Origin: an uncultured Desulfohalobiaceae bacterium
GTDB taxonomy: Bacteria; Desulfobacterota; Desulfovibrionia; Desulfovibrionales; Desulfothermaceae
DNA: 54,466 nt
Direction: 5' to 3'
Assembly: GCA_964621385.1 (NCBI GenBank)
Contig: CAZUMF010000001.1
Coordinates: forward strand, 1-54,466
Below the pieces are notes generated by a model. It ran no database searches. It was not told the origin of the DNA and saw only the letters and a program-made list of their open reading frames with translations. The position numbers and the translations under genes were made by a program. Positions 18,593-49,575 of this stretch are shown one piece after another; the stretch's first letter is position 1; each line of letters starts with the position of its first letter.

Positions 18593-18703
18593 GCCAGCTG
18601 CGAAAAATGTCCGGGCCCCCTCCTCGAGGGGGCCTTCCGGCCGGGACCCTGCCCTGCCGGCCCGTGTTCACCGAGTCGACGTCCAGCAAAAAAGGGTTGC
18701 CCT

Positions 18704-19771
18704 ATGAACACCGCTGTCAGTCTTCAGAACCTCACGAAAAAATTCAACGAAGTCACGGCCCTACACGACATCTCCCTGGACATTTACGCCCGGGACTTCT
18801 TTTTCCTGCTCGGCCCCAGCGGCTGCGGCAAAACCACCTTGTTGAAAATTATCGGCGGCCTGGAATTTCCCACCACGGGCACCATTAAGATCCTGGATAA
18901 AGATGTGACCCGGGTCCGGGCCAACAAGCGGAACACCTCCATGGTCTTTCAGGAATGGGCCCTGTTTCCGCACATGAGTGTCTACGAGAACATCGCCTTC
19001 GGCCTGAAGAAACGGAAAATCGACAAAAAGACCATCACCCGCAAGGTGGACGAACTCCTGGAGCTTTTGCATATGTCCGGGTACCAGAACCGGATGCCGT
19101 TCGAACTCAGCGGCGGCCAGCAGCAACGGGTGGCCATCGCCCGCTCCCTGGCCATCGAACCGGACGTCCTCCTCCTGGACGAGCCCCTGTCCAACCTGGA
19201 CCTGGCCCTGCGCCAGCAGATGCGGGTGGAACTGGTCAGACTGCACAAGGAGATCGACAAGACCTTTGTCTACGTCACCCACGACCAGACCGAAGCCCTG
19301 AGCATGGCCAACAGGATCGCGGTGATGAACATGGGGGTCGTGGTCCAACTGGATTCCCCGGAGACCATCTACAAGCGACCCAAGAACGAGTACGTCGCCA
19401 AATTTATCGGGGAAGCCAACGAGGTCAAAGGGACCATCGTCTCACCGACGATGTTTGTCTCCGATTCCGGACTCCAGGTCAAAATCCCCCAGCAGGACCT
19501 CCCCACGGACAGCCGGGTGCTTTTCGTGGTCCGGCCCGAGGAGATCCACCTTTTGGACCCGGAGGCCGAGCTCCCGGAGAATCATTTCCGGGCCCGGGTG
19601 GACACGGTGAGTTATTTCGGCCGGCAGCTGCGTTTTTATGTCAAACTCATCGAGAGCGGGGAGATCTTTTTCATCGATATCTTCTCGACCCAGCTGAATG
19701 CCGATTTCTACCCGAACCAGGAGATCCTGATCGGCTGGGAACGGAGCCAAACCTTTTGCTTTCAAGGCTAA
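18704..19771 (+). CDS. ABC transporter ATP-binding protein (PotA-like)
   Basis: 355-aa ORF with Walker A GPSGCGKTT, signature LSGGQQQRVAIAR, Walker B LLLDEP and a C-terminal TOBE-like region. Confidence 0.9.
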   Translation: MNTAVSLQNLTKKFNEVTALHDISLDIYARDFFFLLGPSGCGKTTLLKIIGGLEFPTTGTIKILDKDVTRVRANKRNTSMVFQEWALFPHMSVYENIAFGLKKRKIDKKTITRKVDELLELLHMSGYQNRMPFELSGGQQQRVAIARSLAIEPDVLLLDEPLSNLDLALRQQMRVELVRLHKEIDKTFVYVTHDQTEALSMANRIAVMNMGVVVQLDSPETIYKRPKNEYVAKFIGEANEVKGTIVSPTMFVSDSGLQVKIPQQDLPTDSRVLFVVRPEEIHLLDPEAELPENHFRARVDTVSYFGRQLRFYVKLIESGEIFFIDIFSTQLNADFYPNQEILIGWERSQTFCFQG

Positions 19772-19789
19772 GCCCGGAGGTATGCCCCG

Positions 19790-20662
19790 ATGAGTACCCT
19801 GACCACCTATAAACCGTCCCTGAAGTACCTCATACCGGCCATCCCCTTATTACTGTTCACGCTCTGCTTCTTTCTGTTTCCCATCCTGCTGATGGTCAAA
19901 TACAGCCTGCACCATTCCCTTCCCTATGGTGAAATTGAACCGATCTTCACCCTTGAGAATTACATCAAATTCTTCACGGACATCTTCTATGTCAAGGTTC
20001 TGATCAAAAGTTTCCTCCTGGGTCTGGCCGTCAGTGTGGTGACCATTCCCCTGGGCTATGTGGTGGCCTACGCCCTCTGGCAGTCCACCGGCCTGAAGCG
20101 CAAGATCCTCTACATCTGCATTCTGTTCCCGCTGTTCACCAACCTGGTGGTCCGGCTCTACGGCTGGCGGATCATTCTCTCCCCGGCCGGCCCCATCAGC
20201 AATTTCCTGCAACGGATCGGGCTGGTCGAGGAAAGCGTGAACATGCTCTTCACCTGGCCGACCATCGTCCTCGGCCTGTTTTCGGAATGCGCCCCCTATT
20301 ATATCCTGATCCTCTTCAGCGTGCTGACCCTCATCAACCCGCGGTACATCGACGCGGCCTTCGATCTCGGGGCCACCCGCATCGAGACCTTTTTTAAGGT
20401 CATCTGGCCCTTGAGCCTTTCCGGGGTCATCTCCGGAGGCCTCATCGTCTACATCTGGGCTTTCGGGGCCTTCGCCACCCCGACCATCCTGGGCAACGCC
20501 AAGCACTGGACCCTGGCGGTCCATGCGGAACGGCAGATCCTCAGCCTTCGGGACTGGCCTTACGGGTCCGCATTCGGGATCATCATCCTCTTTTTCACCT
20601 TGCTCATCGTCTATCTGCAGACCAAGATCCTCAAACGGAAACAGATGTACAGGGAACTCTGA
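19790..20662 (+). CDS. ABC transporter permease (PotB-like)
   Basis: 290-aa hydrophobic ORF with multiple TM segments and a binding-protein-dependent transport permease pattern. Confidence 0.85.
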   Translation: MSTLTTYKPSLKYLIPAIPLLLFTLCFFLFPILLMVKYSLHHSLPYGEIEPIFTLENYIKFFTDIFYVKVLIKSFLLGLAVSVVTIPLGYVVAYALWQSTGLKRKILYICILFPLFTNLVVRLYGWRIILSPAGPISNFLQRIGLVEESVNMLFTWPTIVLGLFSECAPYYILILFSVLTLINPRYIDAAFDLGATRIETFFKVIWPLSLSGVISGGLIVYIWAFGAFATPTILGNAKHWTLAVHAERQILSLRDWPYGSAFGIIILFFTLLIVYLQTKILKRKQMYREL

Positions 20663-20747
20663 CCAGGCGGACTTCATTCGGCCGGGGGACATAGACCCCT
20701 ATCGACATCGCCGCATGTCTGAACCTTATCGAACTTGGGGAGAAACC

Positions 20748-21557
20748 ATGAAACAGGACTGGGATTTCAAAAGCATCGCCTTCAACTGTCTGTTGGCCGT
20801 GGTCCTGATCATCCTGCTGGCGCCGCTGCTCATCGTCTTCATCAGTTCGTTCCTGGACAAGGCCCACTTGAGCTGGCCCTTCAATGACTTCACCTTCAGG
20901 TGGTACCTGGAGGTCTTCAAACGGGATATCTGGGTCAAGGCCCTGATGAACAGCCTGATCGTCGCCGGATTGACCACCCTGTTCACCCTGCTCCTCTGCA
21001 CCCCGGCCGCCTACGCCATCACCCGCAGGACCAACCGCTTCACCGAGTTCCTGCGGACCTTTTTCATGAGCCCCATCATGATTCCCCCGGTGATGATCGG
21101 GATCTCCCTGCTCATCTTTCTCAGCAACTTCGGGATTCGCGGCTCCTATCTCGATCTCGCCCTGGGGCACACCCTCTGGGCCGGTCCCATCGTGTTCATC
21201 ACCATGATCGCGGTCTTTGAACGCTTCAATCCGATTTACGCTTACGCCGCCCAGGATCTCGGGGCCAACTCCCTGGAGATCTTCTGGCAGATCACCCTGC
21301 CCATGGTCAAACCCGGACTCATCGCCTCCATTTTCCTCTCCTTTGTGCTCTCCACCCAGGAGTTCATCATCGGGCTCTTTCTCTACACCCCGAAAACCAT
21401 CATTCTCCCGGTGGAGATCTATACCGCGATCCGCTATGAGCTCAGTCCCGCGATTTCCGCCATCTCGGTCTATCTGGTGGGTATCGTGATCATCGGCCTG
21501 TTTGTCATCGACCGAATGATCGGCATTGAAAACGTTTCCTTTTCCGGCAAGGGATGA
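20748..21557 (+). CDS. ABC transporter permease (PotC-like)
   Basis: Hydrophobic ORF. The ATG at 20748 is preceded by ggggaga. The track ORF start at 20523 overlaps the previous gene and reads as low-complexity sequence. Confidence 0.85.
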   Translation: MKQDWDFKSIAFNCLLAVVLIILLAPLLIVFISSFLDKAHLSWPFNDFTFRWYLEVFKRDIWVKALMNSLIVAGLTTLFTLLLCTPAAYAITRRTNRFTEFLRTFFMSPIMIPPVMIGISLLIFLSNFGIRGSYLDLALGHTLWAGPIVFITMIAVFERFNPIYAYAAQDLGANSLEIFWQITLPMVKPGLIASIFLSFVLSTQEFIIGLFLYTPKTIILPVEIYTAIRYELSPAISAISVYLVGIVIIGLFVIDRMIGIENVSFSGKG

Positions 21558-23383: not shown

Positions 23384-23444
23384 GGGGGGACTGTTGAGTT
23401 CAACGCCATGTTTGACAACTGTAAATGAAAACAGGAGGAAGTGT

Positions 23445-24917
23445 ATGCGACGCAATCTGCACGCCGGGAAACGACCCAACAGGGGGCTGCGCTTTGAGGT
23501 TTTCAGTGCTGACGACCTTGAAGACATCCACTTCGCCACCCTGGAAATCCTTGAAAAGACAGGGTTGTATTTTGCGGATGACCAAGCTCTGGAGATCCTG
23601 CATGGAGCCGGGGCTGTGATCGACAAAACCAGGAAGGTGGCCAAAATTCCCCCTTACGTGGTGGAAGAGGCCATCAGGTCGGCCCCTTCAAAGCTGGTTC
23701 TGGCCGGGCGCAATCCTGAAAACGACTTTGTCATGGAGGGCGGCCGGGTCGGTTTCACCAATTTCGGGGAAGGGGTCTTCATCAATGATCCCTATAGCGG
23801 CGAACACCGCAAAACCACCAAGGCAGACGTGGCTTCTTCCGCCCTGCTGGCGGATTACCTGTCTGAAATCGATGTCTATGAACGGGCCGTGGGCGCTGAA
23901 GACACCCCGGCTGCATCCGTTCAGTTGCACAATGCCGAAGCCTGGATGCCCAATACCTCCAAACACGGGTTTATGGGGCCTGGCAACGGCTACCTGCTGC
24001 ACAAGATCGTGGACATGGCCGCGGCAGCTGCTGGGGGGAAGGACAAACTGCAAGAGCGGCCCCTGGTCAGCTTTATCACCTGCCCGGTCAGCCCCCTGAA
24101 ACTGGAAAAGGACACCTGCGAGATCATCATGGAGGCGGCCCGTTCCGGGATGGCGGTCAACATCCTGTCCATGGCCATGGCCGGTGGTTCCTCACCCGTG
24201 ACCCTGGCCGGGACCCTGGTGGACCACAACGCCGAAATCCTGGGCGGCATCGTCCTCAGCCAAGCCACCCGCAAAGGGGCCAAAGTCGTTTACGGCAGTT
24301 CGACCACAGCCATGGATCTGCGTTTTGCCGCGGCCATGGTCGGCTGCCCGGAATGCGGGGTCATCAACGCCGGCGTGGCCCAGCTGGCCCGCTACTATCT
24401 TTTGCCCAGCTGGGTCGCGGGCGGGTAGGGCGACAGCAAGGTTTGCGATGCCCAGTCCGGTCATGAAAAAACCATCACTGGCCTGTTACCGGCGTTGGCA
24501 GGTGCCAACCTGATTTACGGCCTGGGAATGATCGAAATGGGCATGACCATCGATTACGGCCAACTGGTCATGGACAATGAATTCGCCAGAATGATCAAAC
24601 ATGCGGTCCAGGGGGTCCCGGTGAGTGACGAGACCCTGGCCGTAGAGGTCATGCGGGAGATCGGCATTGGCAAGGACTACCTCAGCCATGAACACACGTA
24701 CCGCCACATGAGGTCCCAGTCCCAGTCCCAGTTGATCGATCGCAGAACCCGGGAATACTGGGAAACCAATGGGGGCATGGATATTTTCCAGCGCTCCATG
24801 GAGCAGGCCAGATACATCCTGGAACATCACCGACCCGAGCCCATTGCAGACAGCGCTTTGGCTGAAATACGCCTGATTGTCGAGGAGGCTGAAAAAGAAC
24901 TGGGGGTTGGGCAGTGA
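23445..24917 (+). CDS. mttB: trimethylamine:corrinoid methyltransferase MttB with an in-frame UAG (pyrrolysine) at 24426..24428
   Basis: Track ORFs 23394..24428 and 24495..24917 share a frame and are separated only by TAG. The joined product is 490 aa, MttB-like throughout. SD aggagga lies before ATG 23445. Terminates in TGA. Confidence 0.9.
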
Positions 24918-25194: not shown

Positions 25195-26589
25195 ATGGGA
25201 AAGATCCGAACCCGTTTTGGTGACGGTTTTCCGCTTGAGCTCAGCTCAAAGGAACTCCGTCAGGATTTGGAGGAAGGCACTGCCGAGGCTGCGGACAGGG
25301 GGTCCATCGCCACGCTGGCAGAAGATGAGCTGCGCCATCTCGAGGATATTTTCACCTCAGCCCACCGTTTTATCGGCGTCGAGCCTGGAAAGGAAATCAT
25401 CCTGAGCTATGACGGGGCCCCTTTGAAGATGAAACGGGCCCAGGTCAATGTGGACCGGGTTCAGGCCCTGCAGATCTATGAAAAACTTCTGGGGGCGGAC
25501 ACTCTGGAATTGGCGCATGTCGATTACAGCTATAAGCCGGTCAAGCCGATTGTCACCTTTGAACAGCCACTGCTGGAACAGGTCTTTTCCGTGACCACGG
25601 CCCCGGTTTTTTACGGAGCCATGCCCAACTTAGGCCTTTACAGCCAACCGGACGGACCCTTCCCCAATCCGGCTGAACTCCTGCCTCTGGGCAAAATCAA
25701 GGAAGCCCGGGAAGCATCCGAGGCTGCGGTGGAGAATGCGGTCAAGGATATCGTCTATATTGGCAGACGCATGATTGAATCCGGGGCTGACGGGATCAAT
25801 CTCGACACGACCGGTGCTGCTGGTGACGCGGATTTTCAGGCCGCTCTTCTGGCCACTGAACAACTCAGGGCCAAATATCCCACGGTCTGCATTGAACTGG
25901 GCATGTCCGGGGAGTTTGTCCTTGGCATGCACGGTGGGTTGACCTATAAAGGGGAGCGTCTGGCCCTGATGTATCCCCACCAGCAGGTTAAAATGGCCGA
26001 AGCGGCCGGGGCGACCATCTTCGGCCCGGTCGCCAACACTAAGCCCAGCCGGTCGGTTCCCTGGAATCTGGCCAGGACAACGACCTACATGAAGGCCTGC
26101 TGCGAAGTGGCCACGATCCCTGTTCATCCGAATATGGGCATGGGGGTCGGCGGCATGCCCCTCACCGATCATCCGCCGCTTGATGTGGCCTCCAGAGCTT
26201 CCAAGGCGATGGTGGAGATCTGCCGGCTGGATGGGTTGTAGGTAGGGGTCGGCGATCCCATGGGTATGGCCATCACACATGCCGTTGCTTCGGGAATGGG
26301 CGGAATGAGGACAGCCGGAGATCTGGTTGCCCGCATGCAGATGACCCGGGGCATGAAAATCAAGGAAGCCAAAGCGCATGTGGCCGGAAAACTGAAGTGC
26401 TCGGTCTCTGATCTGACCGACCCGATCCTCATGCAAGAGGCCAGGGACGAACTCAAACTCGGGGTTCTCCATCCCTACGCCGGTTCTCCCAAGTGCATGG
26501 AGGCCAAGTTCAACATCGCAGCCCTTTTAGATATCGACATCAATTGCGTGAACCGTTTCCGCAACAATCTCAACCCAGGCTCGCTGTAA
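25195..26589 (+). CDS. mtbB: dimethylamine:corrinoid methyltransferase MtbB with an in-frame UAG (pyrrolysine) at 26239..26241
   Basis: Track ORFs 25195..26241 and 26260..26589 share a frame and are separated only by TAG. The joined product is 464 aa. The context [20 protein letters not shown] is as in MtbB. Terminates in TAA. Confidence 0.9.
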
Positions 26590-28511: not shown

Positions 28512-29156
28512 ATGGACAAGAACGAGTATTTGGAGAAGGCCTCAAAAGCGATTCTAGAAGCTGATGAGGAAGAGGCCGTGAAATTAGCAGAAGCGTATTT
28601 GGAGGAGGGACTTGATCCAACGGAAATGATCGAGAACGGTCTTTCCGCCGGGATCATGAAGCTGGGAGATCTCTTTGACCGGGGAGAAGTCGTGCTTCCT
28701 CATGTCATTATTGCCTCCGAGGCTATGACAGCTGCGGTAAAAATTCTTGAAAAGGGTATGCCTGCTGAAGAAAAAGGGAAAAAAAAGGCAAAGGTCGTTT
28801 TGGGCACTGTGGAAGGGGACGTGCACGATATCGGCAAAGGCATTGTATCAACCATGTTAAAAGTCTATGGGTATGAGATTTTTGATCTGGGACGGGACGT
28901 CCCCATCGAGGAGTTTGTGGAAAAAGCCAAAGAAGTCAAGGCCGATGTGGTTGGTTCCTCGGCCTTGATGACGACCACTCAGGCCGGACAAAAAATCCTG
29001 GAAAAATCATTGAAGGAGGCTGGGATTCGAGAAAACATCAAAACCATGGTCGGTGGAGCGGCCACCACGGATCACTGGGCCGAAAAGATCGGAGCTGATT
29101 TTTGGGCTGAGAACGCAAGTGATACAGTGATGAAGCTGAATGAAATTTTTGACTAA
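28512..29156 (+). CDS. mtbC: corrinoid protein (MtbC-like by position)
   Basis: 214-aa ORF with a cap domain and a B12-binding domain carrying [10 protein letters not shown]. It lies 14 nt upstream of mtbB copy 2. The symbol is assigned from adjacency only. Confidence 0.85.
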
Positions 29157-29170
29157 CAGGAGGTGAAACT

Positions 29171-30571
29171 ATGGCCAAACACCTGACCAGACGGGGTGAC
29201 GGGGCATTCATTGAGATGAGCGCCGGCGAAATCATGAGAGACTTGGAGGAAGGGACTGCAGACGCTGCAGACAGGGGGAAAATCCCCCCTCTTTCTAAAG
29301 AAGAACTGGAAAAACTTCGAGATATCTTTTGCGATCCGGCCAAGTTTGTCAGCGTGGAACCGGGCAAAGAAGTGCCGCTGACTCATGATATCGGCACCTT
29401 GCGAGTGATGGGCGACCAGGGAAACAGTGGCGTTGGAATCCCCTTGAGCCGTGTTCAAGGCATCCAGGTGCACGAAAGGGCACTGTGCGCCGATACCATG
29501 GAGTTGGGGCATATCGACTACAGCTTCAAGCCTGTCAAACCGGTCATTGCCATGGAACAACAGGAGTTGGAAAACGCTTTGTTGTCTACGGTTCTGCCGC
29601 TCTTTTACGGAGCCATGCCCAATCTCGGGACGTACTATGAGCCCGACGGACCTTTCGGAAATCCTTCGGATTTGCTGCCAGCAGGCAAAATCAAGGAGGC
29701 TTACGCAGCTCAAGAAGGAGCAGTGGAACACGCAACACGAGACATGATCTTTGTCAGCGAAAAACTTGCAGAAGTCGGTTGCGATGGGATCAACATCGAC
29801 ACGACAGGGGCTGCCGGCGACACAGACTTTAAAGCCACCCTGCACGCTGTTGAACATCTCAAAAAGCATACGAAAATGTGCATTGAGGTTGGTATGGCGG
29901 GCGAATTTGTCCTGGGGATGCATGGAGGCCTCGAATATGACGGGAAAAAGCTCCATGGACTGTATTGCCATCAACAGGTAGAATTGGTTGAGAAATCAGG
30001 TGCGGATATTTTTGGGCCAGTGGTGAATACGAAACCGAGCAGATCCATGCCTTGGAATCTGGCCAGGGCGGTCACATTCATCAAAAAAACTGTGGAAACA
30101 TCCAATATCCCCATCCATGTGAATATGGGTATGGGGGTCGGCGGTTCACCTGTATTTGAGACCCCTCCCATTGACTCTGTGAGCAGGGCCTCCAAGGCGA
30201 TGGTGGAAATAGCCGGCGTAGACGGGTTGTAGGTAGGTGTGGGAGACCCCATGGGGATGTCTATAGCTCATGCAGTGGCAGCGGGAATGGGTGGAATCAG
30301 GACCGCCGGAGACCTGGTGGCCCGCATGCAGATGACCCGCAAGATGCGGATCAATGATGCAAAAGCCTACGTTGCCGAAAAGCTTCAGTTGTCCCCATTT
30401 GACCTGTCAGACGTCCACGTAATGAGAGAGGTCCGCGAGGAGCGAGACATCGGAATCATTACTTCAGTCCCAGGTTGTGCCAAGGGAATCGAGGCCAAGG
30501 CTCGCATCGCCGAGTTGCTCGATATCGAGATTGCAGGGGTAACGCGTCTCAAGGAAAAAATGAAACTGTAA
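29171..30571 (+). CDS. mtbB: dimethylamine:corrinoid methyltransferase MtbB (copy 2) with an in-frame UAG (pyrrolysine) at 30230..30232
   Basis: Track ORFs 29171..30232 and 30239..30571 share a frame and are separated only by TAG. The joined product is 466 aa. [45 protein letters not shown] matches my recollection of Methanosarcina MtbB. Terminates in TAA. Confidence 0.9.
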
Positions 30572-30595
30572 ACAAAACAAGACAACCCAAGTGAC

Positions 30596-30692
30596 ATACC
30601 AGCAGTTGGCACCGACAGCGCTTTTGCATGAGTCTTCACCGCAGGCTTCAACGGAGATGTATGACCTGTTGGTTTGGGCCAACTGCTGGTAT
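30596..30692. repeat. 15-bp perfect inverted repeat with a 67-nt spacer
   Basis: ATACCAGCAGTTGGC (30596..30610) and GCCAACTGCTGGTAT (30678..30692), in the noncoding gap after mtbB copy 2. Confidence 0.6.
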
Positions 30693-30893
30693 TGAATAAA
30701 ACGCCTGGGAGCGAGAGCACATTCTTCTACCTCGGTTTCTCTGAGCCTTTGTGCAGGCTCATCTTAAGCAAATCTTTCAGAAAAAATAGAGAGCGAGCCG
30801 TTGACACATTGCATCACTCCCTGAACGGACAAGATCTACTCCTTGAACTTATAAAGAGGCGCAACCACACTTCATGACGATGAACCCTACCCT

Positions 30894-31454
30894 ATGAGAA
30901 ACGATAGCTCCGAAAAAGAATTGACACACGCTCTCAAAGAGATGGCCAGCAAACACAATGTAAAGCTTTTTTCCTATGATGTGCAGCAAATAAAGCCTTC
31001 TGAGAGTATCCGGCTCAAATGTCAAGTGCCGCTTTGCGAGTACTACGGGGTCTGCAAAGTCTGTCCTCCACATATCCCGAGTGTGGAAGAATTCAGAAAA
31101 ATACTGAAAGATTACACGCAATGTTTTCTGGTTGTCTTTCAGGAAGATATAGATAATATTGCCCTCTACCGCCACGACTACCGGGCAGAATTGAAACTGG
31201 CAGAAGCAGTGTCTGAGTTGGAGAATACTGCCTTTGTGCACGGAGAATACATGGCCTTGGGTTTGACAGTTGGCGGCTGCAAATTATGCAGCGATTGCAC
31301 CGCTGCCGGTGAACCGTGCCGGCATCCTTTCAAGGCCCGTCCCAGCCCAGAAGGATTTGGCATTGACATTACCAGGATGGCACGGGAAGTTGGCGTGCCT
31401 GTGGAATGGCCCCCTCGGAAAACGGTCAATTTCATAGGTCTTGTTCTCATATGA
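30894..31454 (+). CDS. DUF2284-like Cys-rich metal-binding protein (copy 2)
   Basis: 186-aa ORF with CQVPLCEYYGVCKVCPP and CKLCSDCTAAGEPC motifs. Paralogous to 966..1592. Confidence 0.6.
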   Translation: MRNDSSEKELTHALKEMASKHNVKLFSYDVQQIKPSESIRLKCQVPLCEYYGVCKVCPPHIPSVEEFRKILKDYTQCFLVVFQEDIDNIALYRHDYRAELKLAEAVSELENTAFVHGEYMALGLTVGGCKLCSDCTAAGEPCRHPFKARPSPEGFGIDITRMAREVGVPVEWPPRKTVNFIGLVLI

Positions 31455-31584
31455 TCAATCTCTCAGATCATTTACCCCACAACTGATATCAGCAATTCAC
31501 TCAGATATGATCCCTGTTTATTGTTTCAGCAGAACCTTATCATCTCCCCTCTGAAGTGGGAAGTTCCTGAAAGGAGACCCATAC

Positions 31585-32568
31585 ATGGCTCGGCATTCAG
31601 CTTTTTCATCAGATATGAACACGATACACAGCAACGTGTCTCAGGAGGTTGTTGGCAGAAAAACTGAAATTCAATTGATACTGACTGCTCTGCACGCTGG
31701 AAAACACATCCTGCTTGAAGGGCCTCCAGGCACATCCAAATCTACTTTACTCCGGGCAATCGCCAAGGAAACAGGCATGCCTTTCTATATCGTAGAGGGG
31801 AATATCGATCTGACACCCGCCAAAGTTGTTGGTCATTTCAACCCATCAGGGGTCTTGAAAGACAGCTACCAAATGGAACACTTTGAACAGGGCCCCCTGA
31901 CCAAAGCCATGCTGGAAGGGGGAATCCTTTACATTGAAGAGTTCAACCGTATGCCGGCTGATGTTTCCAACGTGCTCATTTCACCCATGGAAGAAGGAGA
32001 AATTTCCATCCCCAGATATGGAAGCATCACAGCGGTTCCTTCATTCACCGTTATTGCAGCTCAAAACCCCTATGATGACGTTGGAACCGTCAGGGTCAGC
32101 AAAGCCTTCATGGACCGAGTTTGCTTAATCAAAATGGAATACCAGAACAAGGAGGAGGAACAGGAGATTGTTAAACGCCGAACCGGGGTGCTGCATCCTG
32201 ATATCACTGGTTTGGCCGTTGACATGGTCCGCAGGACAAGAGAGCATTCTGATCTTAAGGTCGGCGCATCAGTTCGGGGAGCCATTGACATGGTTGATCT
32301 CCTGACCGGCCTCCTGCAAATGGACAACCGGATCGAGCACAACCTTCTCCTGGCGGCCCGTATGGCTTTATCCAATAAGATTTGGCTGAGTGAAATGACC
32401 GAAAAAAATACAGACGAGATCGTTGAGGAAATCCTCGAAAGTCTCAAGCTTCAATTTACTGATTTGATCAAAAGCAATGAACCACTTCCCCCTGAATCAC
32501 TCCAAACGGACACCGATGATGACCTCCCTTCTGAAACAGGACAGGCAAAAAAAAAAGCAGCCATGTAG
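31585..32568 (+). CDS. MoxR-like AAA+ ATPase
   Basis: 327-aa ORF with Walker A LLEGPPGTSKST, Walker B-like ILYIEEFNR and MoxR/CbbQ/CobS-like architecture. Ends in TAG immediately after an A10 run. Confidence 0.8.
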   Translation: MARHSAFSSDMNTIHSNVSQEVVGRKTEIQLILTALHAGKHILLEGPPGTSKSTLLRAIAKETGMPFYIVEGNIDLTPAKVVGHFNPSGVLKDSYQMEHFEQGPLTKAMLEGGILYIEEFNRMPADVSNVLISPMEEGEISIPRYGSITAVPSFTVIAAQNPYDDVGTVRVSKAFMDRVCLIKMEYQNKEEEQEIVKRRTGVLHPDITGLAVDMVRRTREHSDLKVGASVRGAIDMVDLLTGLLQMDNRIEHNLLLAARMALSNKIWLSEMTEKNTDEIVEEILESLKLQFTDLIKSNEPLPPESLQTDTDDDLPSETGQAKKKAAM

Positions 32569-32621
32569 GAGAACAATTTCTTGATCCCAAACAGGACACC
32601 CAGTACTCTTACTTCTACCGT

Positions 32622-33425
32622 ATGGCCTCCTACCTGAATGCTCATCCTGAAAAGCTCCCGGATTTTTTTGAGCAGCAAGATGCTCTTGAGATGTTCGCAA
32701 ATGTGTATGGCATGCTGAAACAGAATGTCCGGAATCTTGCTGTCAAACTTGCCAGTCGGCTCATCATCAAAATTGCAAAGCAGATTGCTGATACTGGATA
32801 CCGTTCCGGCAAACTGAAACTGGTCAAGGGTTGTGCAGATGGAGCCGAATTGGAATTGGACAGGAGTCTGGAACGATATACTGAGGAACCGGAAATGGGT
32901 ATTGCTGACTGTTTAATGTCACTTACCAGGTATAAGGAACGTGAAGCTTTTGTCATGATATTTGACCGCAGCTATTCAATGAGAGGTATGAAAATCATCC
33001 TTGCCGCTATTACCGCAGCCTCAATTGCCAGACATTTCAGAAGAAATTATGCGATCCTTGCCTTCAGCAATGATGTCTCCGTTATCAAGGGGATCGATTC
33101 CACAGACGGACCCGAGACCATTCTTGAACGATTGTTTGCCTTGACGCTACAAGGAGATACGGACATTCACCAGGCTCTGGAAAAAGGCCTGGCCCATATC
33201 AGAAAATTTGAACGAAAACGTGGTCTTATCCTCACGGATGGGGCTTGGAACCGAGGAAAGAACCCTCTCTCAGTCGCTGGTCGCTTTGACAAGCTCAGTG
33301 TGATCGGTTTTCCACCGGCCAACATGGATAAAATCAGACCATTAGCCTTGAAAGGTCAGGGTGAACTCTCCTTTGTTGAAGATGAAACCACAATCGGCGG
33401 AGCCATCCTCAAGTCACTAAATTAA
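32622..33425 (+). CDS. von Willebrand factor A (VWA) domain protein, partner of the MoxR ATPase
   Basis: 267-aa ORF with a MIDAS-like DRSYSMRG motif. There is no SD before ATG 32622, and its frame stays open for 29 codons upstream, into the end of the ATPase gene. Confidence 0.7.
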   Translation: MASYLNAHPEKLPDFFEQQDALEMFANVYGMLKQNVRNLAVKLASRLIIKIAKQIADTGYRSGKLKLVKGCADGAELELDRSLERYTEEPEMGIADCLMSLTRYKEREAFVMIFDRSYSMRGMKIILAAITAASIARHFRRNYAILAFSNDVSVIKGIDSTDGPETILERLFALTLQGDTDIHQALEKGLAHIRKFERKRGLILTDGAWNRGKNPLSVAGRFDKLSVIGFPPANMDKIRPLALKGQGELSFVEDETTIGGAILKSLN

Positions 33426-33460: not shown

Positions 33461-34555
33461 ATGCACACAACCTCAACATATCTTTCTACCATTCTTGAAA
33501 AGGCAACAAAAGGTTCAAGAATTTCCCGTAAGGAGACGACGTATCTGTTGTCGCTGAGAGACCCCGAAGCCATCCAACGAGTGATATCGACCGCCCGTGA
33601 CGTTTGCCGGCAGAACTTTGGGAACAGTGTTTTTTTATACGGGTTCATCTATTTTTCAACATATTGCCGCAATCAATGTGCTTTTTGCTTTTATCGGCAA
33701 TCCAATACCCGCAGTCCGCGGTATCGGAAAAACCTGGACGAAGTGGTGCGTACAGCCTGTTATCTGGTTGATTCCGGGGTTCATCTGGTTGACCTGACCA
33801 TGGGTGAAGATCCCCTGCTTCATGAATCGGGTTTTCAAAGGCTTCTCCAGATTATAGCCCGGATAAAACAGAAAACAGGCATTCCCATCATGGTTTCCCC
33901 GGGTGTCGTGCCCGACGATCTGTTCAAGGAGTTTACGAAGCTTGAGGTTGACTGGTATGCATTGTATCAGGAGACGCACAACCCGACACTTTTTCAGAAG
34001 CTGCGGATCAATCAGGACTATGAGATCCGGAACAAGAAAAGAATCACAGCTCAGCAGGCCGGCATGCTCGTCGAAGACGGGATACTGATAGGAATCGGGG
34101 AGAGTGTTGCTGATCGAGCAGATTCAATCATGACCATGAAACGCAGCCTTTTGGATCAGGTTCGAGTCATGAGCTTTGTGCCCCAACCTGAAACTCCCTT
34201 GGCCAGAACACATACCTTACCCAGAATCAATGAAATCTTGTGTATAGCCGCGATGCGTCTGGCTATGCCGGATCAACTGATCCCAGCTTCCTTAGATGTA
34301 GACGGATTGGAAGGACTCAAGATGCGCTTGGAAGCAGGAGCGAACGTGGTCACTTCGATCATTCCTCCCAGCAATACGTTAGCCGGTGTCGCCCAAACTT
34401 CTCTGGATGTGGAAGAAGGCCGACGCTCGGTGCGTGAAGTGACGAAAATTCTGTCTCAGATGGATCTGGTCCCTGCCAGCAGAGAGGACTATGAATACTG
34501 GATCAAAGAGAGGAAAAAAACACAGCCCACGTCCTTGGAGGTGATCATGACCTAA
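33461..34555 (+). CDS. pylB: PylB, radical-SAM 3-methylornithine synthase
   Basis: 364-aa ORF. FGNSVFLYGFIYFSTYCRNQCAFCFY, VDLTMGEDP, ALYQETHNPTLFQKLR, VEDGILIGIGES, VRVMSFVPQPETPL and LIPASLDVDGLEGLKMRLEAGANVVTSIIPP track my recollection of Methanosarcina PylB block by block. Confidence 0.85.
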   Translation: MHTTSTYLSTILEKATKGSRISRKETTYLLSLRDPEAIQRVISTARDVCRQNFGNSVFLYGFIYFSTYCRNQCAFCFYRQSNTRSPRYRKNLDEVVRTACYLVDSGVHLVDLTMGEDPLLHESGFQRLLQIIARIKQKTGIPIMVSPGVVPDDLFKEFTKLEVDWYALYQETHNPTLFQKLRINQDYEIRNKKRITAQQAGMLVEDGILIGIGESVADRADSIMTMKRSLLDQVRVMSFVPQPETPLARTHTLPRINEILCIAAMRLAMPDQLIPASLDVDGLEGLKMRLEAGANVVTSIIPPSNTLAGVAQTSLDVEEGRRSVREVTKILSQMDLVPASREDYEYWIKERKKTQPTSLEVIMT

Positions 34556-36034: not shown

Positions 36035-36769
36035 TTAGATTGGGGAATGCCCATTTCCATTCTTCTTGGCAATCACCAGGGTCCAATAGTCCGGAGGCAT
36101 CATCTCCAGATCACGAACATTGGTGATAATTTGCTCCTTGTCTCGACCGCACCTGGATATGGCCATGCTGTATTCCAAAAATCCGGTTTCCTCCATGGCA
36201 TCATTGATATCTTTGGTGTTCCGATAGGCTTTGAACAACACCACATTCTCGACACACTGCGAAATATTTCGCAATCTCTCTCCACCAAGAGCCCCGGAGG
36301 TGATGACGAGGGACTCCTCGTCCTCAACCAGAACCGTATTCAAACGTGCCGCCACCGCCTGTGGAGTACAAATTCCCGGAATGGTTCTGATCCTGGCTAA
36401 TGGATCCAAGTCCTGCAACTGCTTCAATATATACCCATAGGTAGAATACGTCATTGGGTCCCCTAAGGTCAAGAAGGCGACATCCAGGCCTTGGTCCATT
36501 TCGCGCTTCAAGGCCCTGGCATTTTCCCGCCAGGCTGGGTACGTCACTCGCTTGTCTTTGGTCATGGGAAAATCAAGGAGTCTGACTTCAGTGTCTCCAT
36601 CAATGTATGGTTTGGCAATGGTCACCGCCAGGCTGTGCTGATTTTTACTCGAAGAAGCCGCGAAAATGACGTGAACGATCTCTAACGCCTTGACGGCCTT
36701 CAAGGTGATCAGCTCAGGATCACCCGGCCCCACCCCTATGCCGTAAAGGGTGCCCTTTTTCATGTTCAT
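36035..36769 (-). CDS. cbiL: precorrin-2 / cobalt-factor II C20-methyltransferase
   Basis: Tetrapyrrole methylase signature GTLYGIGVGPGDPELITLKA and FLTLGDPMTYSTY. The start is taken at the MNMKKG ATG after gaggtga. The track ORF extension to 36943 runs into the terminator and riboswitch. Confidence 0.85.
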   Translation of the reverse strand: MNMKKGTLYGIGVGPGDPELITLKAVKALEIVHVIFAASSSKNQHSLAVTIAKPYIDGDTEVRLLDFPMTKDKRVTYPAWRENARALKREMDQGLDVAFLTLGDPMTYSTYGYILKQLQDLDPLARIRTIPGICTPQAVAARLNTVLVEDEESLVITSGALGGERLRNISQCVENVVLFKAYRNTKDINDAMEETGFLEYSMAISRCGRDKEQIITNVRDLEMMPPDYWTLVIAKKNGNGHSPI

Positions 36770-36842
36770 AATCACCTCGTCCTGAATTAAACATTGACCG
36801 CAGTTACGACAATATTTGATCTTCCCTTTTCCTATCACCCCC

Positions 36843-36880
36843 AAAAAAAAACCGGATCGAATAGCGCTTATTCGATCCGG
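36843..36880 (-). terminator. intrinsic terminator (riboswitch expression platform)
   Basis: On the minus strand, CCGGATCGAATA-loop-TATTCGATCCGG (12-bp perfect stem) is followed by T9. It lies between the riboswitch and cbiL. Confidence 0.75.
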
Positions 36881-36944
36881 GGATTTCCCTTTTTTATCCA
36901 CCATGATCAAATGAGTTTCCAACCTCGGGAAACCATCATCCATG

Positions 36945-37140
36945 TTCAGGCAGGTCTTCTGACTTACGGATCGCCCTACTTGCCCGGTTGAAAAGATTCT
37001 TCAGAGAAATATCAACCAGGCTCACCGCCCCTTCCCATCGGATGTTTTCCAACAGTGGTTCTTTGCGGTTTTCGTCACCGATTACAGCCGCGGGCCGGTC
37101 CCTGAGTCGCACAGGGTTCCCTTTTTCGCTCCTATCGAGC
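36945..37140 (-). promoter_or_regulatory. cobalamin (B12) riboswitch
   Basis: The minus strand reads AAAAGGGAACCCTGTGCGACTCAGGGACCGGCCCGCGGCTGTAATCGG ... GAACCACTGTTGG ... GATGGGAAGG ... AGAAGACCTGCC. This parallels the E. coli btuB leader blocks (AGGGAA-UCCAGUGCGAAUCUGGA-GC..CGCAGCGGUAAGG, B12 box CACUG, GGGAAG, GAAGACCUGCC). Confidence 0.8.
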
Positions 37141-37187
37141 ACCTGAACACATCACATATCAATGAATCGCCTTATTCCTCCAAAGAT

Positions 37188-38018: not shown

Positions 38019-38729
38019 TCAGATACCCAAATAGGCTTTCCGGACATGTTGATTATCCATTAGGCCATGCGTTTCACCCTCAAGCGCCATCTTCCCAACT
38101 TCCAACACATACCCATATTCAGCCAATTGAAGAGCCAATTCAGCATTTTGTTCCACAAGAATAATCGACACACCTCTTTTGTTTATCTCAACAAGAATAT
38201 CCGCTATTTCTTTGACCACAAGCGGGGCCAGACCCAGAGAGGGCTCATCCAGCATGAGGAGTTGTGGATCTGACATTAAAGCCCGCCCAATGGCCAGCAT
38301 CTGCTGCTCACCGCCACTCATGGTGTGGGCCACCTGGCTGGTTCGTTCGGCAAGTCTTGGAAAATGATGAAACACTTTCTCCATATCCCGTTGCACGCCT
38401 TTTTTCTCTGATCGGGTGAAAGCGCCGAGTAAGAGATTCTCCCTTACAGTAAGCTCCGGGAAAACCCGTCTGCCCTCTGGGACATGGGCGATGCCAAGCT
38501 TGAGAACCCTGTCAGGAGATAAGCCTGTTATCGGTTGGCCCTTATAGACAATTTTCCCATGACTGGGACGAACCAGACCGGAAATAGCACGCAATGTCGT
38601 GCTCTTGCCGGCCCCGTTCGATCCGATGATTGTGATCATTTGCCTGTCTTTCAGCTGCAAGGAAATTCCCTGAAGCGCTGCAACCATCTGATAATGGACA
38701 ACAATGTCCTGAAGTTCTAGTAGTGGCAT
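38019..38729 (-). CDS. livF: branched-chain-amino-acid-type ABC transporter ATP-binding protein (LivF-like)
   Basis: 236-aa ORF with Walker A GSNGAGKSTT, signature MSGGEQQMLAIGRAL and Walker B LLMLDEPS. Confidence 0.9.
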   Translation of the reverse strand: MPLLELQDIVVHYQMVAALQGISLQLKDRQMITIIGSNGAGKSTTLRAISGLVRPSHGKIVYKGQPITGLSPDRVLKLGIAHVPEGRRVFPELTVRENLLLGAFTRSEKKGVQRDMEKVFHHFPRLAERTSQVAHTMSGGEQQMLAIGRALMSDPQLLMLDEPSLGLAPLVVKEIADILVEINKRGVSIILVEQNAELALQLAEYGYVLEVGKMALEGETHGLMDNQHVRKAYLGI

Positions 38730-38730
38730 G

Positions 38731-39483
38731 TCATTTTACCCCGAGATACGCTTCAATGACCTGATCATTGGCCTGAATCTCCTCAGGCGATCCATTTGCC
38801 AGGAGCTTGCCGAAATTGAGCACGAAAATTTTCTCGCACAGTCCCATGACTGCCTTCATGTCATGTTCGACAAGAAAAATGGTCGTCCCATTGTTCTGAA
38901 TTTTCTTGACCAAATCCATCATGTGAGAGGTCTCCTCCGGATTCATCCCGGCAAAAGGCTCATCCAAGAGAAGTAGCTCTGGTTCTGCAGCCAGAGCTAC
39001 GGCTACAGCCAGTGTCCGTTGCGATCCCAAGGGCAGATTGAGGGCCAACTGGTCCTTTCTCTTGGTTAAGCCCATAAATTCTATAATATCTAAGGTTTTG
39101 GCCTCGGCTTCCTCTTGTTTTTTTCTATCCGTTCGAAACAAGGCTGAAAAAAAATTCGATCTGGCTTTGATATGGCAACCCATCAAGACATTTTCAAATA
39201 CAGTGAATTCTTGAAACAATGTCGTTTCCTGAAATGTTCGAACCAATCGTTTTTCAGCTATGGCGCTGGGCCCTAAACCGGTGATTTCCTCGCCGAGGAA
39301 CAAAATCTTTCCCTGATTGGGACTATGAAAACCAGTGATCGTCTTGAACAATACACTTTTCCCTGCTCCGTTCGGTCCGATCAGTCCCTGTATCATTCCT
39401 TGATCTACAGAAAAATTCACATCATGAACAGCAATCAATCCTCCAAATCGTTTGAACAATCCCTGAACTTGCAGTAAGGTCAT
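38731..39483 (-). CDS. livG: ABC transporter ATP-binding protein (LivG-like)
   Basis: 250-aa ORF with Walker A GPNGAGKS, KRFGGLIAVHDVNF and LLLLDEPFAGMNPEE. Confidence 0.9.
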   Translation of the reverse strand: MTLLQVQGLFKRFGGLIAVHDVNFSVDQGMIQGLIGPNGAGKSVLFKTITGFHSPNQGKILFLGEEITGLGPSAIAEKRLVRTFQETTLFQEFTVFENVLMGCHIKARSNFFSALFRTDRKKQEEAEAKTLDIIEFMGLTKRKDQLALNLPLGSQRTLAVAVALAAEPELLLLDEPFAGMNPEETSHMMDLVKKIQNNGTTIFLVEHDMKAVMGLCEKIFVLNFGKLLANGSPEEIQANDQVIEAYLGVK

Positions 39484-39546
39484 CCCTCGCTCCTCAATGT
39501 AGGCAATATCTCATCAACAATGTCCCGCGTTTCGAATACCTGGGAC

Positions 39547-40530
39547 TCATGTTCCTTCCTTTTCCTCAACTTCGGACGGACGGTGCAGAAGGCTGGATAT
39601 CTTAGCGGGCAGGCTTTCCAGTCCGTTGGGCAGGAACATGATGGTCATGATTAAAATGACTCCGTAGATGAGGGGTCGGAGTTCCTCGAATCCCCGGAAC
39701 CAGGTATTAAGCAAGGACAGGACAACGACTCCGATGATCGGTCCCTGAAAGGTCTGTATGCCACCGACGATCACCCAGATTAGTACGTAAATCATAATCC
39801 CCACGCCGAATTGGTGCGGATTGAGCGATCCCAGATAGTGAACGAACAGGACCCCGGCTATCCCGACGAAAAAAGAAGCCAGCACAAAAGCTGTTGTCTT
39901 GTAGCGCCAGGTATTGACACCTATCGATTCAGCCAGGACATCATTCCAATGAATCGAATGCAGGGTCAGCCCGATTCGCGAATTTTCTATCCGGTACAGG
40001 ATGCACAAGGAGATGGTCACAATGACAATGGTTAGAAAATAATAGGGAATCGGCTCCCAGATCTCAATGTTTCCCAGAATCGGCAGCGTGATATGGGGGG
40101 ATGGGATCAGGCTGATACCCTTGGGGCCTCCAAGGTCTTTAAAATAGACCCAGCACAAGCGAATAGCCTCACCGGCTGCAAATGAACCGATCAAGAAATA
40201 GAATCCCTTCATCCGAAACAATGAAAAACTGAGAAGAAAGGCCAAAAAACCCGTCAGCATCCCAGCTAAAGGCATGCTCAGCCAGAACGAGATTCCCAGT
40301 TCTTTGGTGATCAGGCCGCTTGCATAGGCACCCACTCCCATCAGAACGACGTGGATCAGCGAGAACTCACCGGTCAGGGTCATAAGCCTGTAGCTGACCA
40401 CGACCAGAATATTGATCAAAAGAAAAATCATGAAATCCTGGTATTGGTATGGCAGGAAAAAAGGTAGGGCCGAAAGAAATGCAAAGAGGCCCAACAACCC
40501 CAGTATGTATGAGAATCGATTCATAAACAT
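39547..40530 (-). CDS. livM: ABC transporter permease (LivM-like)
   Basis: 327-aa polytopic membrane ORF within the Liv-type operon. Confidence 0.85.
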   Translation of the reverse strand: MFMNRFSYILGLLGLFAFLSALPFFLPYQYQDFMIFLLINILVVVSYRLMTLTGEFSLIHVVLMGVGAYASGLITKELGISFWLSMPLAGMLTGFLAFLLSFSLFRMKGFYFLIGSFAAGEAIRLCWVYFKDLGGPKGISLIPSPHITLPILGNIEIWEPIPYYFLTIVIVTISLCILYRIENSRIGLTLHSIHWNDVLAESIGVNTWRYKTTAFVLASFFVGIAGVLFVHYLGSLNPHQFGVGIMIYVLIWVIVGGIQTFQGPIIGVVVLSLLNTWFRGFEELRPLIYGVILIMTIMFLPNGLESLPAKISSLLHRPSEVEEKEGT

Positions 40531-41417
40531 TATTCCGTCTTCCTGGCTCCTAAAATTCCTGTTGGTTTGGCCACTAAAACCAGCAGCATAATCACAAGGC
40601 CCAAGATTGTGGCCAAACTGCCGGAGAAATAGGTACTTATAAACGTGTAGAAAAAGGCGTACAGCACTGCGGCCATAACCGCTCCTGTCAGACTGCCCAG
40701 CCCGCCCACCAAAGTCACGATCAAGGCGGTGATAATGACAGCGTGGCCCATATAGGGCTCCACCCGGGTCAGGGGTGCCATCATGGCCCCGGCTGCTCCG
40801 GCTGAAAAGGCACTGATGATCATGGCCAGGATGGAAATCTGGTTGATATTGATTCCTTGAAGCTCTGCTGCCTCTCGATCCTGGGCTACGGCCCTGAGGG
40901 CCCAGCCCAGTTTGGTCTTGGTCAGTAAAAAACCGATCAGAAAAAGCAAGACAGCTGACACCACAAGGGCCAGGAGGCGTTGGGCCGATACGGTCACTCC
41001 GCTCACGATCTCTATCGTCCCCCGAACCGATGGGGGGATATGCTTCATAAGACCAAGCCCCCCGATTTCCACGGCCAGAACCTGGAGTATAAACAAGGCC
41101 CCGATGGAATTGATCAGACCTCCAAGCGGATTGTCACGCATGGGGCGGAACAGTCCCAGTTCCATGATCAAGCCGATAAGAGTGACGATGAGGCAGGCCG
41201 CTATTCCAGCCAGGAAAAACGGCCAGCCGGATACGGAATACAGGTACCAAACCCCGTAAGCCCCAGCCATGTATAATTCTCCATGGGCCAGGTTGATGAC
41301 GCCCATAACCCCGAAGATGAGCACCAAGCCCACGGCTACCAGGGCAAAAAAACTACTGGCAACTAAGCTGTTGACGCAGGTCTGCAAAAAGACTTCCACG
41401 GTCCAGATCCTCCTCAA
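40530..41417 (-). CDS. livH: ABC transporter permease (LivH-like)
   Basis: 295-aa polytopic membrane ORF with VINLAHGELYMAGAY typical of LivH. The exact start is uncertain. Confidence 0.85.
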   Translation of the reverse strand: MRRIWTVEVFLQTCVNSLVASSFFALVAVGLVLIFGVMGVINLAHGELYMAGAYGVWYLYSVSGWPFFLAGIAACLIVTLIGLIMELGLFRPMRDNPLGGLINSIGALFILQVLAVEIGGLGLMKHIPPSVRGTIEIVSGVTVSAQRLLALVVSAVLLFLIGFLLTKTKLGWALRAVAQDREAAELQGININQISILAMIISAFSAGAAGAMMAPLTRVEPYMGHAVIITALIVTLVGGLGSLTGAVMAAVLYAFFYTFISTYFSGSLATILGLVIMLLVLVAKPTGILGARKTE

Positions 41418-41462
41418 AAAGAGACCAGGAGTTCCTCCTCCCGGTCTCTTGTCTTGTCAAGG

Positions 41463-44450: not shown

Positions 44451-44585
44451 TTTCACACCTCCTTTTCTTTTGAGATTGACTGTTTTGTCTTGTAATGTTT
44501 GTTCCTGATCTGTCATCACCTCCTTCATGAGTCAGGTTGTGCCAGCATACAGCCAAGCAAGAGACTCAGGAATCGAATGTTCCTT

Positions 44586-48655: not shown

Positions 48656-48739
48656 GGCGGTGTCCTTATTCTTGATGGTTCAAATCCAACCTTCAGCGCA
48701 GAAGCAAGCAGGAAGCATTGCAGCAATGAGGATCGTGCA

Positions 48740-49561: not shown

Positions 49562-49575
49562 TGTAACTGTAAGAA

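Follow-up and report, generated by a model that had tools for sequence, protein, structure and literature searches.

A second pyrrolysine-type mtbB gene in a methylamine-utilisation island of an uncultured Desulfohalobiaceae bacterium, and synonymous constraint around its in-frame UAG

The deltaproteobacterial delta1 symbiont of Olavius algarvensis possesses several pyrrolysine (Pyl)-type mtbB and mttB paralogues that are clustered with pyl genes (Zhang & Gladyshev 2007, PMC1976440), and no RNA structure common to all methyltransferase mRNAs was found in that study (PMC1976440). Here we describe a methylamine-utilisation island located on a 54,466-nucleotide (nt) stretch of DNA from an uncultured Desulfohalobiaceae bacterium (contig CAZUMF010000001.1, hereafter termed the window), which contains two mtbB paralogues, each with an in-frame UAG. 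Our analysis is centred on the second of these genes (copy 2), on the 14-nt string that it shares with the first (copy 1) at the UAG, and on the sequence that follows this codon in mtbB genes generally.

According to the standard model, the usual elongation factor delivers Pyl-tRNA(CUA), and each UAG is contested between this tRNA and the release factor (PMC8211752, PMC2933860, PMC12626013); this is also the best-supported model for the window. The prevailing view is that Pyl insertion needs neither a cis element nor a particular mRNA context (PMC8211752, PMC2933860, PMC1976440). In the case of mtmB1, a structure located 3' of the UAG (PYLIS, RF01982) enhances read-through but is not essential, as Longstaff et al. 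2007 are summarised in one review (PMC2933860), and this review states that nothing PYLIS-like has been seen in mtbB (PMC2933860). An mtbB consensus structure put forward by Have et al. 2013 (PMC3639795) is comparable to the Rfam family RF02509.

The second mtbB gene and its in-frame UAG

The coding sequence 29171..30571 is very probably a functional mtbB in which the in-frame UAG encodes pyrrolysine, and the 14-mer at this codon very probably does not serve as a recoding signal as a whole. The gene extends from an ATG at 29171 to a TAA at 30569..30571 and its translation contains a single internal stop, the in-frame TAG at 30230..30232, with no frameshifts and no extra stops. The initial annotation had described two open reading frames (ORFs), 29171..30232 and 30239..30571, that share a frame, are split only by the TAG and join to give a product of 466 amino acids (aa). 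This description holds, since the interval 30239-29171 is divisible by 3 and the translation likewise comprises 466 residues. The hidden Markov model (HMM) PF09505 (Dimeth_Pyl) matches copy 2 with 731 bits in one unbroken alignment that passes through the UAG (residues 5-462, profile positions 4-462 of 463), and the equivalog model TIGR02368 matches with 647 bits (cutoff 369.1).

For comparison we assembled 80 homologous loci from species-representative genomes and 80 from metagenomes (designated by L numbers below), which together provide 162 homologous sites. The loci were gathered by N-terminal peptide patterns and the UAG sites were placed by a protein-level motif; as selection was made at the protein level, there is no ascertainment bias at the codons flanking the UAG. 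The homologous column is TAG at 162 of 162 sites, in bacteria as well as archaea. The nearest relatives of copy 2 are genes from Desulfobacterales metagenome-assembled genomes (MAGs; L001-L010), with 82-86% aa identity. On the 3' side of the UAG, copy 2 differs from L002 by 31 synonymous and 12 non-synonymous changes, a pattern of purifying selection, and this synonymous excess argues that the C-terminal 112 residues are translated. With the HMM alignments across the UAG, the universal TAG column and the presence of pylB and pylSn in the window, the original proposal of a second intact mtbB with a Pyl UAG is well founded. In the public gene calls (NCBI/Logan) both mtbB copies end at the TAG, as nameless products of 353 aa (29171..30232) and 348 aa (25195..26241). 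These truncated calls are an annotation artefact typical of Pyl genes, as gene callers stop at TAG.

At the UAG of copy 2, Pyl-tRNA(CUA) would insert the active-site pyrrolysine, presumably in competition with release factor 1; a split PylSn/PylSc synthetase would charge this tRNA. Both pylB and pylSn are encoded in the window (Table 1); the true start of pylSn is probably internal, with the domain spanning ORF residues 71-159. The frame upstream of the PylD remnant that adjoins pylSn is full of stops, and pylB lies 19 kb from this pair, behind the AAA/VWA genes that follow copy 2. The usual bacterial pylTScBCDSn cluster seems to be broken up or partly decayed here, and the organism probably makes the pyl machinery only under certain conditions.

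Some observations weigh against this reading of copy 2. Neither pylT, pylSc, pylC nor an intact pylD was found within the 54 kb, and searches for tRNA-Pyl with ARAGORN and at the Rfam gathering threshold over the whole window, and with Rfam at E<=1 beside pylSn, found nothing. Regarding the substrate, dimethylamine is predicted from the equivalog HMM, and the TIGR02368 score is far lower for copy 1 (484.5) than for copy 2. No solved structure related to MtbB was found in the PDB by sequence.

The shared 14-mer and nucleotide-level selection around the UAG

Both mtbB copies carry the string GGGTTGTAGGTAGG at the recoded codon, as had been noted initially, and this string occurs exactly twice in the window, with no further match at two or fewer mismatches. 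The copies have indeed diverged elsewhere, with 56-57% aa and 60% nt identity overall. The suggestion that the 14-nt identity marks a special recoding context is not borne out. In the pairwise codon alignment four longer stretches are identical in the two genes (20, 20, 17 and 15 nt), which leaves the 14-mer in joint fifth place with two other 14-nt runs. Within 10 codons on either side of the UAG, nt identity is 75% compared with 60% gene-wide, and aa identity is 81% compared with 56%; the nt identity is raised near the UAG because the aa identity is raised there. A comparison of synonymous divergence near the TAG with that in the rest of the gene was negative, identical residues being encoded by the same codon in 5 of 13 cases near the UAG as against 119 of 249 gene-wide.

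The codons at positions -2 and +1 relative to the UAG vary freely in homologues. Among 24 bacterial genes the Gly codon at -2 is GGG in nine, GGT in eight, GGA in four and GGC in three, and the +1 codon is GTG (7), GTA (5), GTT (5), ATA (4) or ATT (3). Different codons occupy these positions in the closest relatives of each copy, which read GGT TTG TAG followed by GTT, ATT or ATA (GTT or ATT in the case of copy 2), and the identical 14-mer recurs in unrelated genes from Firmicutes (L014) and Thermodesulfovibrionales (L068). Given how often each codon is used in homologues, two genes would agree by chance at both four-fold sites (GGG and GUA) with a probability of ~0.3 x 0.2, or ~0.06. The 14-mer is composed of the invariant Gly-Leu-Pyl-Val-Gly peptide, a -1 codon that is fixed family-wide and a coincidence at GGG and GUA. 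Recent duplication or gene conversion was ruled out as its source, as the copies belong to different deep clades and the identity of the flanking sequence is ordinary. An out-of-frame second TAG, contained in TAGGTAGG, requires GTA as the +1 codon (5 of the 24 bacterial genes) and hence is not conserved. A motif common to the mtbB and mttB UAG contexts was sought in the window and none was found.

The -1 codon behaves differently. At 93 unique bacterial sites it is TTG in 90 cases and CTG in three, TTG accounting for ~20% of Leu codons gene-wide, and in archaea it is ATA at 54 of 54 sites, ATA representing 14-17% of Ile codons. Fitch parsimony gives three changes at this position in bacteria, where the remaining Leu columns have a median of 29.5, and none in archaea, where the median of the remaining Ile columns is 13.5. 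Of the 279 columns that could be scored in 85 full-length bacterial genes (two deep clades, several phyla), the seven with the lowest entropy are all located between -1 and +28: GGA at +26 (100%), CTG at +28 (99%), TTG at -1 (96%), TCG at +17 (96%), GAT at +27 (95%), GGA at +21 (89%) and GCC at +25 (84%). Only GAT, CTG and GCC are the majority codon gene-wide (shares of 37-56%). The number of Fitch changes is 0-3.6 at +26, +28, -1, +27 and +17, rising to 7.8 at +25 and 9.0 at +21, and the median column has 21.5. The lowest-entropy columns of 55 archaeal genes include -1 ATA, +5 GAC, +8 GGT, +3 GTC, +4 GGC and +10 CCG, which correspond to hairpin 1 described below. A conserved antisense or overlapping ORF was considered as the cause of the constraint and rejected, since the antisense ORFs differ between the two copies. 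Selection at the nucleotide level around the mtbB UAG is real; its targets are the -1 codon and, in the bacterial genes, also codons +17 to +28. To judge from its conservation, the -1 codon may act through the identity of the P-site codon or of its tRNA, biasing the competition between Pyl insertion and the release factor in mtbB, and the -1 UUG together with the +17 to +28 elements may tune decoding of the UAG.

Both copies are matched end to end by RF02509 (PYLIS_2), a family that we assume to originate from the proposal of Have et al., and both matches begin at the UAG; RF01982 (mtmB PYLIS) has no match in the window at the gathering threshold. A high PYLIS_2 score is expected even without structure because the encoded peptide, VGVGDPMGM…AGDLVARM, is almost invariant. 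Folding was compared with synonymous recodings drawn according to each gene's own codon usage and expressed as a z-score. Hairpin 1 of the model (nt 7-38) has a mean z of +0.18 in bacteria, with +0.27 and +0.30 in the window copies, as against a mean of -2.9 in archaea, where 86% of genes fall below -1.64. When compared with dinucleotide shuffles, the 38 nt after the UAG give z-scores of -0.09 and -0.24 in the window copies, and bacterial synonymous entropy over hairpin 1 is 0.80, compared with a gene average of 0.83. RNAalifold gave -1.4 kcal/mol and no covariation for all 79 sequences. For bacteria only, it placed two pairs in the hairpin-1 stretch, and none when -30 to +50 was folded, and recovered the core of hairpin 2; for archaea it returned a 12-bp hairpin 1 at -14 kcal/mol. 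The PYLIS_2 match does not indicate a selected structure beside the UAG in the window copies, and a UAG-adjacent hairpin is selected only in archaea. In the archaeal loci L016-L080 the 12-bp hairpin begins 6 nt past the mtbB UAG, where the synonymous variability of the gene is lowest. This archaeal hairpin contradicts review statements that there is nothing PYLIS-like in mtbB. No experiment on the effect of PYLIS_2 on read-through of the mtbB UAG was found in the literature searched.

In both window copies hairpin 2 comprises a 7-bp stem (GCCGGAGAUCUGG; CCGCCGG-AGAY-CUGGUGG) with a tetraloop and two outer pairs. Its recoding z-score (nt 73-92) is -3.16 in copy 2 and -1.17 in copy 1, with means of -1.96 in bacteria and +0.36 in archaea. 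It overlies the most constrained bacterial codons, +25 to +28, and the constrained synonymous sites extend from 51 to 87 nt downstream of the UAG. In 93 bacterial sequences pair 78-87 is C-G in 79, U-G in 12, A-U in one and unpaired in one, and pair 75-90 is A-U in copy 1 and C-G in copy 2. Of the PYLIS-like structure for which the initial annotation proposed to look, the PYLIS_2 matches and a conserved small hairpin or motif ~70 nt downstream were found, but not a selected structure directly after the UAG. Several features tell against a structural role acting on the UAG. The proposed pairs are 97% formed over the 93 bacterial sequences but most are invariant, so that covariation is thin, and pair 75-90 is formed at a frequency of 0.59 when 0.555 is expected under independence. 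The A of GGA at +26, the T of GAT at +27 and the G of TCG at +17 are unpaired in any model. Furthermore, hairpin 2 is situated ~70 nt 3' of the UAG, out of reach of a ribosome decoding that codon, and at this distance a direct PYLIS-like role is not the obvious mechanism. Pair 72-93 is formed at 0.77 compared with 0.66 expected, a modest excess that may reflect a subclade. Neither this pair nor pair 75-90, nor an extended bacterial stem (55-108), was accepted as evidence for covariation. The motif includes a GGAG resembling a Shine-Dalgarno sequence, with an in-frame GUG 5 nt later (+29). The bacterial element is best described as a conserved nucleotide motif that is able to form a small hairpin, and alternative roles include pausing, mRNA processing or stability, and internal initiation. 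Neither the mtbB -1 codon nor the downstream motif is present in the mttB genes of the window. A second mtbB-like copy at L139 (5702..5772), which is probably decaying, has a 1-nt deletion and a G-to-T change within the otherwise invariant GCCGGAGATCTGG (GC-GCCGTAGATCTGG).

Other readings of these data were considered. If copy 2 were a pseudogene or split gene, translation would really end at the UAG, and 30239..30571 would either be a remnant that is not translated or form an ORF of its own; the public calls stop there, the pyl cluster looks fragmentary in the window, and UAG is the stop of 6 of its 44 genes, including the AAA gene of the mtbB cassette and pylSn. It is extremely unlikely, however, that a TAG retained throughout bacteria and archaea, followed by 112 codons with a synonymous excess and spanned by one HMM alignment without frameshifts or further stops, marks the end of the gene. 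It is also very unlikely that the 14-nt string is a selected cis-acting recoding context kept in both paralogues for Pyl insertion, although its exact identity at both UAGs contrasts with the low overall nt identity, its internal UUG is under strong synonymous constraint, and a purine directly follows the UAG in all but one of the 79 homologues tallied. The purine at +4 is forced by the Val or Ile residue, the run does not stand out among those that the two genes share, codons for identical residues agree less often close to the UAG than over the gene as a whole, other codons freely take the place of GGG and GTA even in the closest relatives, and the two mttB UAGs of the window are in unrelated contexts, GGG TAG GGC and AAT TAG GCA. 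The homologue survey has largely refuted the 14-mer as a signal.

Another possibility is that PYLIS_2, comprising hairpins 1 and 2, is a functional Pyl insertion element in both bacterial genes, as it may be in archaea. The covariance model matches are full-length and exceed the gathering threshold by a wide margin, 91.6% of cells are paired over the 79 sequences, and archaeal hairpin 1 is favoured over its recodings and holds the lowest-entropy codons at +3, +4, +5, +8 and +10. In bacteria, on the other hand, hairpin 1 is no more stable than recoded or shuffled sequences, each window copy has two non-canonical pairs within it, entropy there is at the gene average, RNAalifold finds no covariation, and the conserved active-site peptide alone explains the bit score; we regard this possibility as improbable. 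A somewhat better case, although still a doubtful one, is that bacterial mtbB has a translation-modulating element of its own, different from the hairpin of archaea and made up of the -1 UUG and the +51 to +90 motif that contains the GCCGGAGAUCUGG hairpin. The clustering of the seven most constrained codons between -1 and +28, their low Fitch counts, a hairpin more stable than its recodings with pair 78-87 maintained in alternative forms, and the lack of a conserved antisense ORF that would account for the constraint all favour it. Against this, the evidence is conservation rather than covariation; constraint on the loop and on unpaired positions points to a sequence motif (GGAG) serving another purpose, such as pausing or internal initiation at the GUG at +29; the element seems too remote from the UAG to act directly on the ribosome that decodes it; and the prevailing literature requires no cis element. 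Decoding of the UAG as pyrrolysine by the standard route, with the 14-mer as a whole playing no part as a signal, is the reading that we prefer.

Genomic setting of the two mtbB copies

The features discussed are collected in Table 1. Copy 1 and copy 2 flank a non-Pyl MttB paralogue and a corrinoid protein gene, as originally described, both of which are located between them. In a neighbour-joining tree copy 2 is placed in a bacterial clade (clade A) with sequences from Desulfobacterales, Firmicutes and Thermodesulfovibrionales, which is sister to archaeal MtbB. Copy 1 belongs to a separate deep clade (clade B), together with L057 (a Desulfobacterales MAG with two copies), a deltaproteobacterial MAG (L066) and Dehalococcoidia. 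Its nearest relatives are L057, at 74% identity, and the metagenome loci L081-L160, at 66-74%. Synteny also differs between the clades: clade-A genes occur in a [RamA]-mtbC-mtbB-DUF2284-AAA-VWA cassette, which is found in Thermincola-like Firmicutes as well, whereas clade-B mtbB is often 3' of a Pyl-type mttB, as is copy 1 in the window. The different deep clades, the 57% aa identity and the synteny therefore show that the copies are ancient paralogues that have been brought together, and the island unites an mttB-mtbB(B)-nonPyl-mttB module with an independent one, mtbC-mtbB(A)-DUF2284-AAA-VWA-pylB.

Table 1. Coordinates of the features discussed, given as positions in the window.
Feature	Position	Strand	Evidence or remark
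mtbB copy 2 (clade A), dimethylamine:corrinoid methyltransferase (substrate predicted), 466 aa including pyrrolysine	29171..30571	+	PF09505, TIGR02368
UAG very probably read as pyrrolysine, residue 354 of copy 2	30230..30232	+	TAG column 162/162, purifying selection 3'
14-mer GGGTTGTAGGTAGG (Gly-Leu-Pyl-Val-Gl[y]) in copy 2	30224..30237	+	exact match
-1 codon UUG in copy 2	30227..30229	+	only part of the 14-mer under family-wide synonymous constraint
PYLIS_2 (RF02509, mtbB) match, copy 2	30230..30329	+	85.5 bits, gathering 36, model 1-100/100, two non-canonical pairs in hairpin 1
Hairpin 2 / bacterial motif (GG-A-CCGCCGG AGAC CUGGUGG-C-CC), copy 2	30300..30323 (core 30303-30309/30314-30320)	+	-14.1 kcal/mol, shuffle z -2.5
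Shine-Dalgarno sequence AGGAGGTG, 5 nt before the copy 2 ATG	29158..29165	+	sequence read
mtbB copy 1 (clade B), 464 aa, UAG 26239..26241	25195..26589	+	PF09505 636 bits; TIGR02368 484.5 bits (cutoff 369.1)
14-mer GGGTTGTAGGTAGG in copy 1	26233..26246	+	exact match
PYLIS_2 match, copy 1	26239..26338	+	86.4 bits, gathering 36, model 1-100, two non-canonical pairs
Hairpin 2 / motif, copy 1	26309..26332 (core 26312-26318/26323-26329)	+	-12.1 kcal/mol, shuffle z -2.7
pylB (methylornithine synthase)	33461..34555	+	TIGR03910 457.1 bits (cutoff 348.2), profile 3-347/347
pylSn (small subunit of split bacterial pyrrolysyl-tRNA synthetase)	13901..14413	-	TIGR03912 127.9 bits (cutoff 51.15)
PylD C-terminal remnant, directly upstream of pylSn	14229..14558	-	profile 170-265/266, 71 bits (<150 cutoff)
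Corrinoid protein gene (MtbC-like), co-oriented, immediately 5' of copy 2	28512..29156	+	TIGR02370 246.3 bits (cutoff 215.3)
Non-Pyl MttB-superfamily methyltransferase, uninterrupted, 478 aa	26615..28051	+	PF06253 258.5 bits; TIGR02369 360.6 bits (<525 cutoff)
DUF2284, AAA (MoxR/GvpN-like) and VWA genes 3' of copy 2	30894..33425	+	Pfam
Pyl-type mttB, TAG 24426	23394..24917	+	PYLIS_3 match; UAG context among GGG TAG GGC / AAT TAG GCA
Pyl-type mttB, TAG ~43467-43469	42972..44528	-	PYLIS_3 match
Cobalamin riboswitch upstream of cbiL-like precorrin-2 C20-methyltransferase gene (36035..36943)	36932..37161	-	98.6 bits

The window is a methylamine-utilisation island. Only 14 nt separate the TAA of the corrinoid gene from copy 2, and this short gap together with the strong Shine-Dalgarno sequence suggests that the two genes are probably co-transcribed. 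The adjacency of corrinoid gene and mtbB is conserved in L001-L014. The MtbC equivalog model NF041607 scores 248.8 bits against the corrinoid gene, under its cutoff of 350, and hence represents a subfamily-level match only. The order DUF2284-AAA-VWA after a clade-A mtbB is also observed in L001-L003, L006, L007, L010 and L014 (Firmicutes), and the stretch fetched for L008 contains DUF2284 only. DUF2284 is a predicted metal-binding domain, and a second DUF2284 gene is located at 966..1592 (- strand); it is possible that the cassette has a role in corrinoid or metal handling. Between copy 2 and this cassette, 25 nt past the stop of copy 2, is a perfect inverted repeat (30596..30692, + strand) whose two 15-nt arms, ATACCAGCAGTTGGC / GCCAACTGCTGGTAT, are separated by 67 nt. 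The 149-nt stretch that contains it (30572..30720) folds into a long hairpin (-52 kcal/mol, z -3.4), which lacks a T-run and is therefore not a classic intrinsic terminator.

Each of the four in-frame TAGs of the window is accompanied by a match to a PYLIS family. The PYLIS_3 matches of the two Pyl-type mttB genes score 77 and 81 bits, and the contexts of their UAGs differ from each other and from that of mtbB. The island further encodes RamA, three MtaA/CmuA-type methyltransferases and four methyltransferase-type corrinoid proteins. A cobA-like adenosyltransferase (346..897) and a CobW-like GTPase (16100..17071) are also present and, with the riboswitch and cbiL-like gene, indicate that corrinoid supply is co-located with the methyltransferases. 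Sets of Liv/Urt-type ABC transporter genes are located at 38019..42740 and 47948..53344 (both - strand), each beside an mttB or corrinoid module, and a Pot-type ABC set (17483..21557) is found upstream of the first mttB (mttB copy 1). These sets are candidate importers of methylamines or quaternary amines.

Comparison with known systems

Copy 2 is an ordinary further mtbB, as Pyl-type mtbB paralogues in deltaproteobacteria of the sulfate-reducer type have been known since 2007. If anything here is new, it is the synonymous constraint around the UAG, which is family-wide, takes a domain-specific form and is a property of mtbB generally. The most constrained mtbB codons cluster at or just after the UAG in both domains, in a pattern that differs by domain, whereas reviews say that no context is needed. 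One might tentatively propose that mtbB has lineage-specific recoding contexts that were missed earlier, consisting of a fixed minority P-site codon (UUG in bacteria, AUA in archaea) and a domain-specific downstream element (a Methanosarcinales-type 12-bp hairpin 6 nt past the UAG, or the bacterial +51 to +90 GCCGGAGAUCUGG motif), although we consider this a possibility rather than a probability. If such contexts do tune the competition between Pyl-tRNA and release factor, decoding of UAG would not be purely context-free, at least in mtbB. The -1 codon and codons +3 to +10 or +17 to +28 offer concrete and cheap targets for mutagenesis, which bear on the question of how enough full-length methyltransferase is made where UAG is also used as a stop, as in the window. 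On the practical side the lesson is one of annotation, both mtbB genes having been cut at the TAG in the public calls.

With the MtbB proteins of Methanosarcina and Pyl bacteria (PF09505/TIGR02368), copy 2 shares a full-length match above cutoff, a single active-site UAG (…DGL-O-VGVGDP…), an adjacent corrinoid gene, and RamA, MtaA-like methyltransferase and pyl genes nearby. It differs from archaeal MtbB in having Leu (UUG) rather than Ile (AUA) before the Pyl residue and in the lack of a selected hairpin adjacent to the UAG. Like the Olavius delta1 symbiont the window combines multiple mtbB and mttB paralogues with pyl genes, although the organism is a different one. In contrast to the manual analysis of 2007, our survey is confined to mtbB and draws on 85-93 bacterial genes, and it reveals a synonymous constraint that the earlier work could not have seen. 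The PYLIS of mtmB1 is located 5-6 nt past the UAG, whereas the bacterial mtbB element is ~70 nt away and belongs to another gene family with another sequence. RF02509 matches the window copies from the UAG to the end of the model and includes the stable core of hairpin 2, but its hairpin 1 is unsupported here and in bacteria generally.

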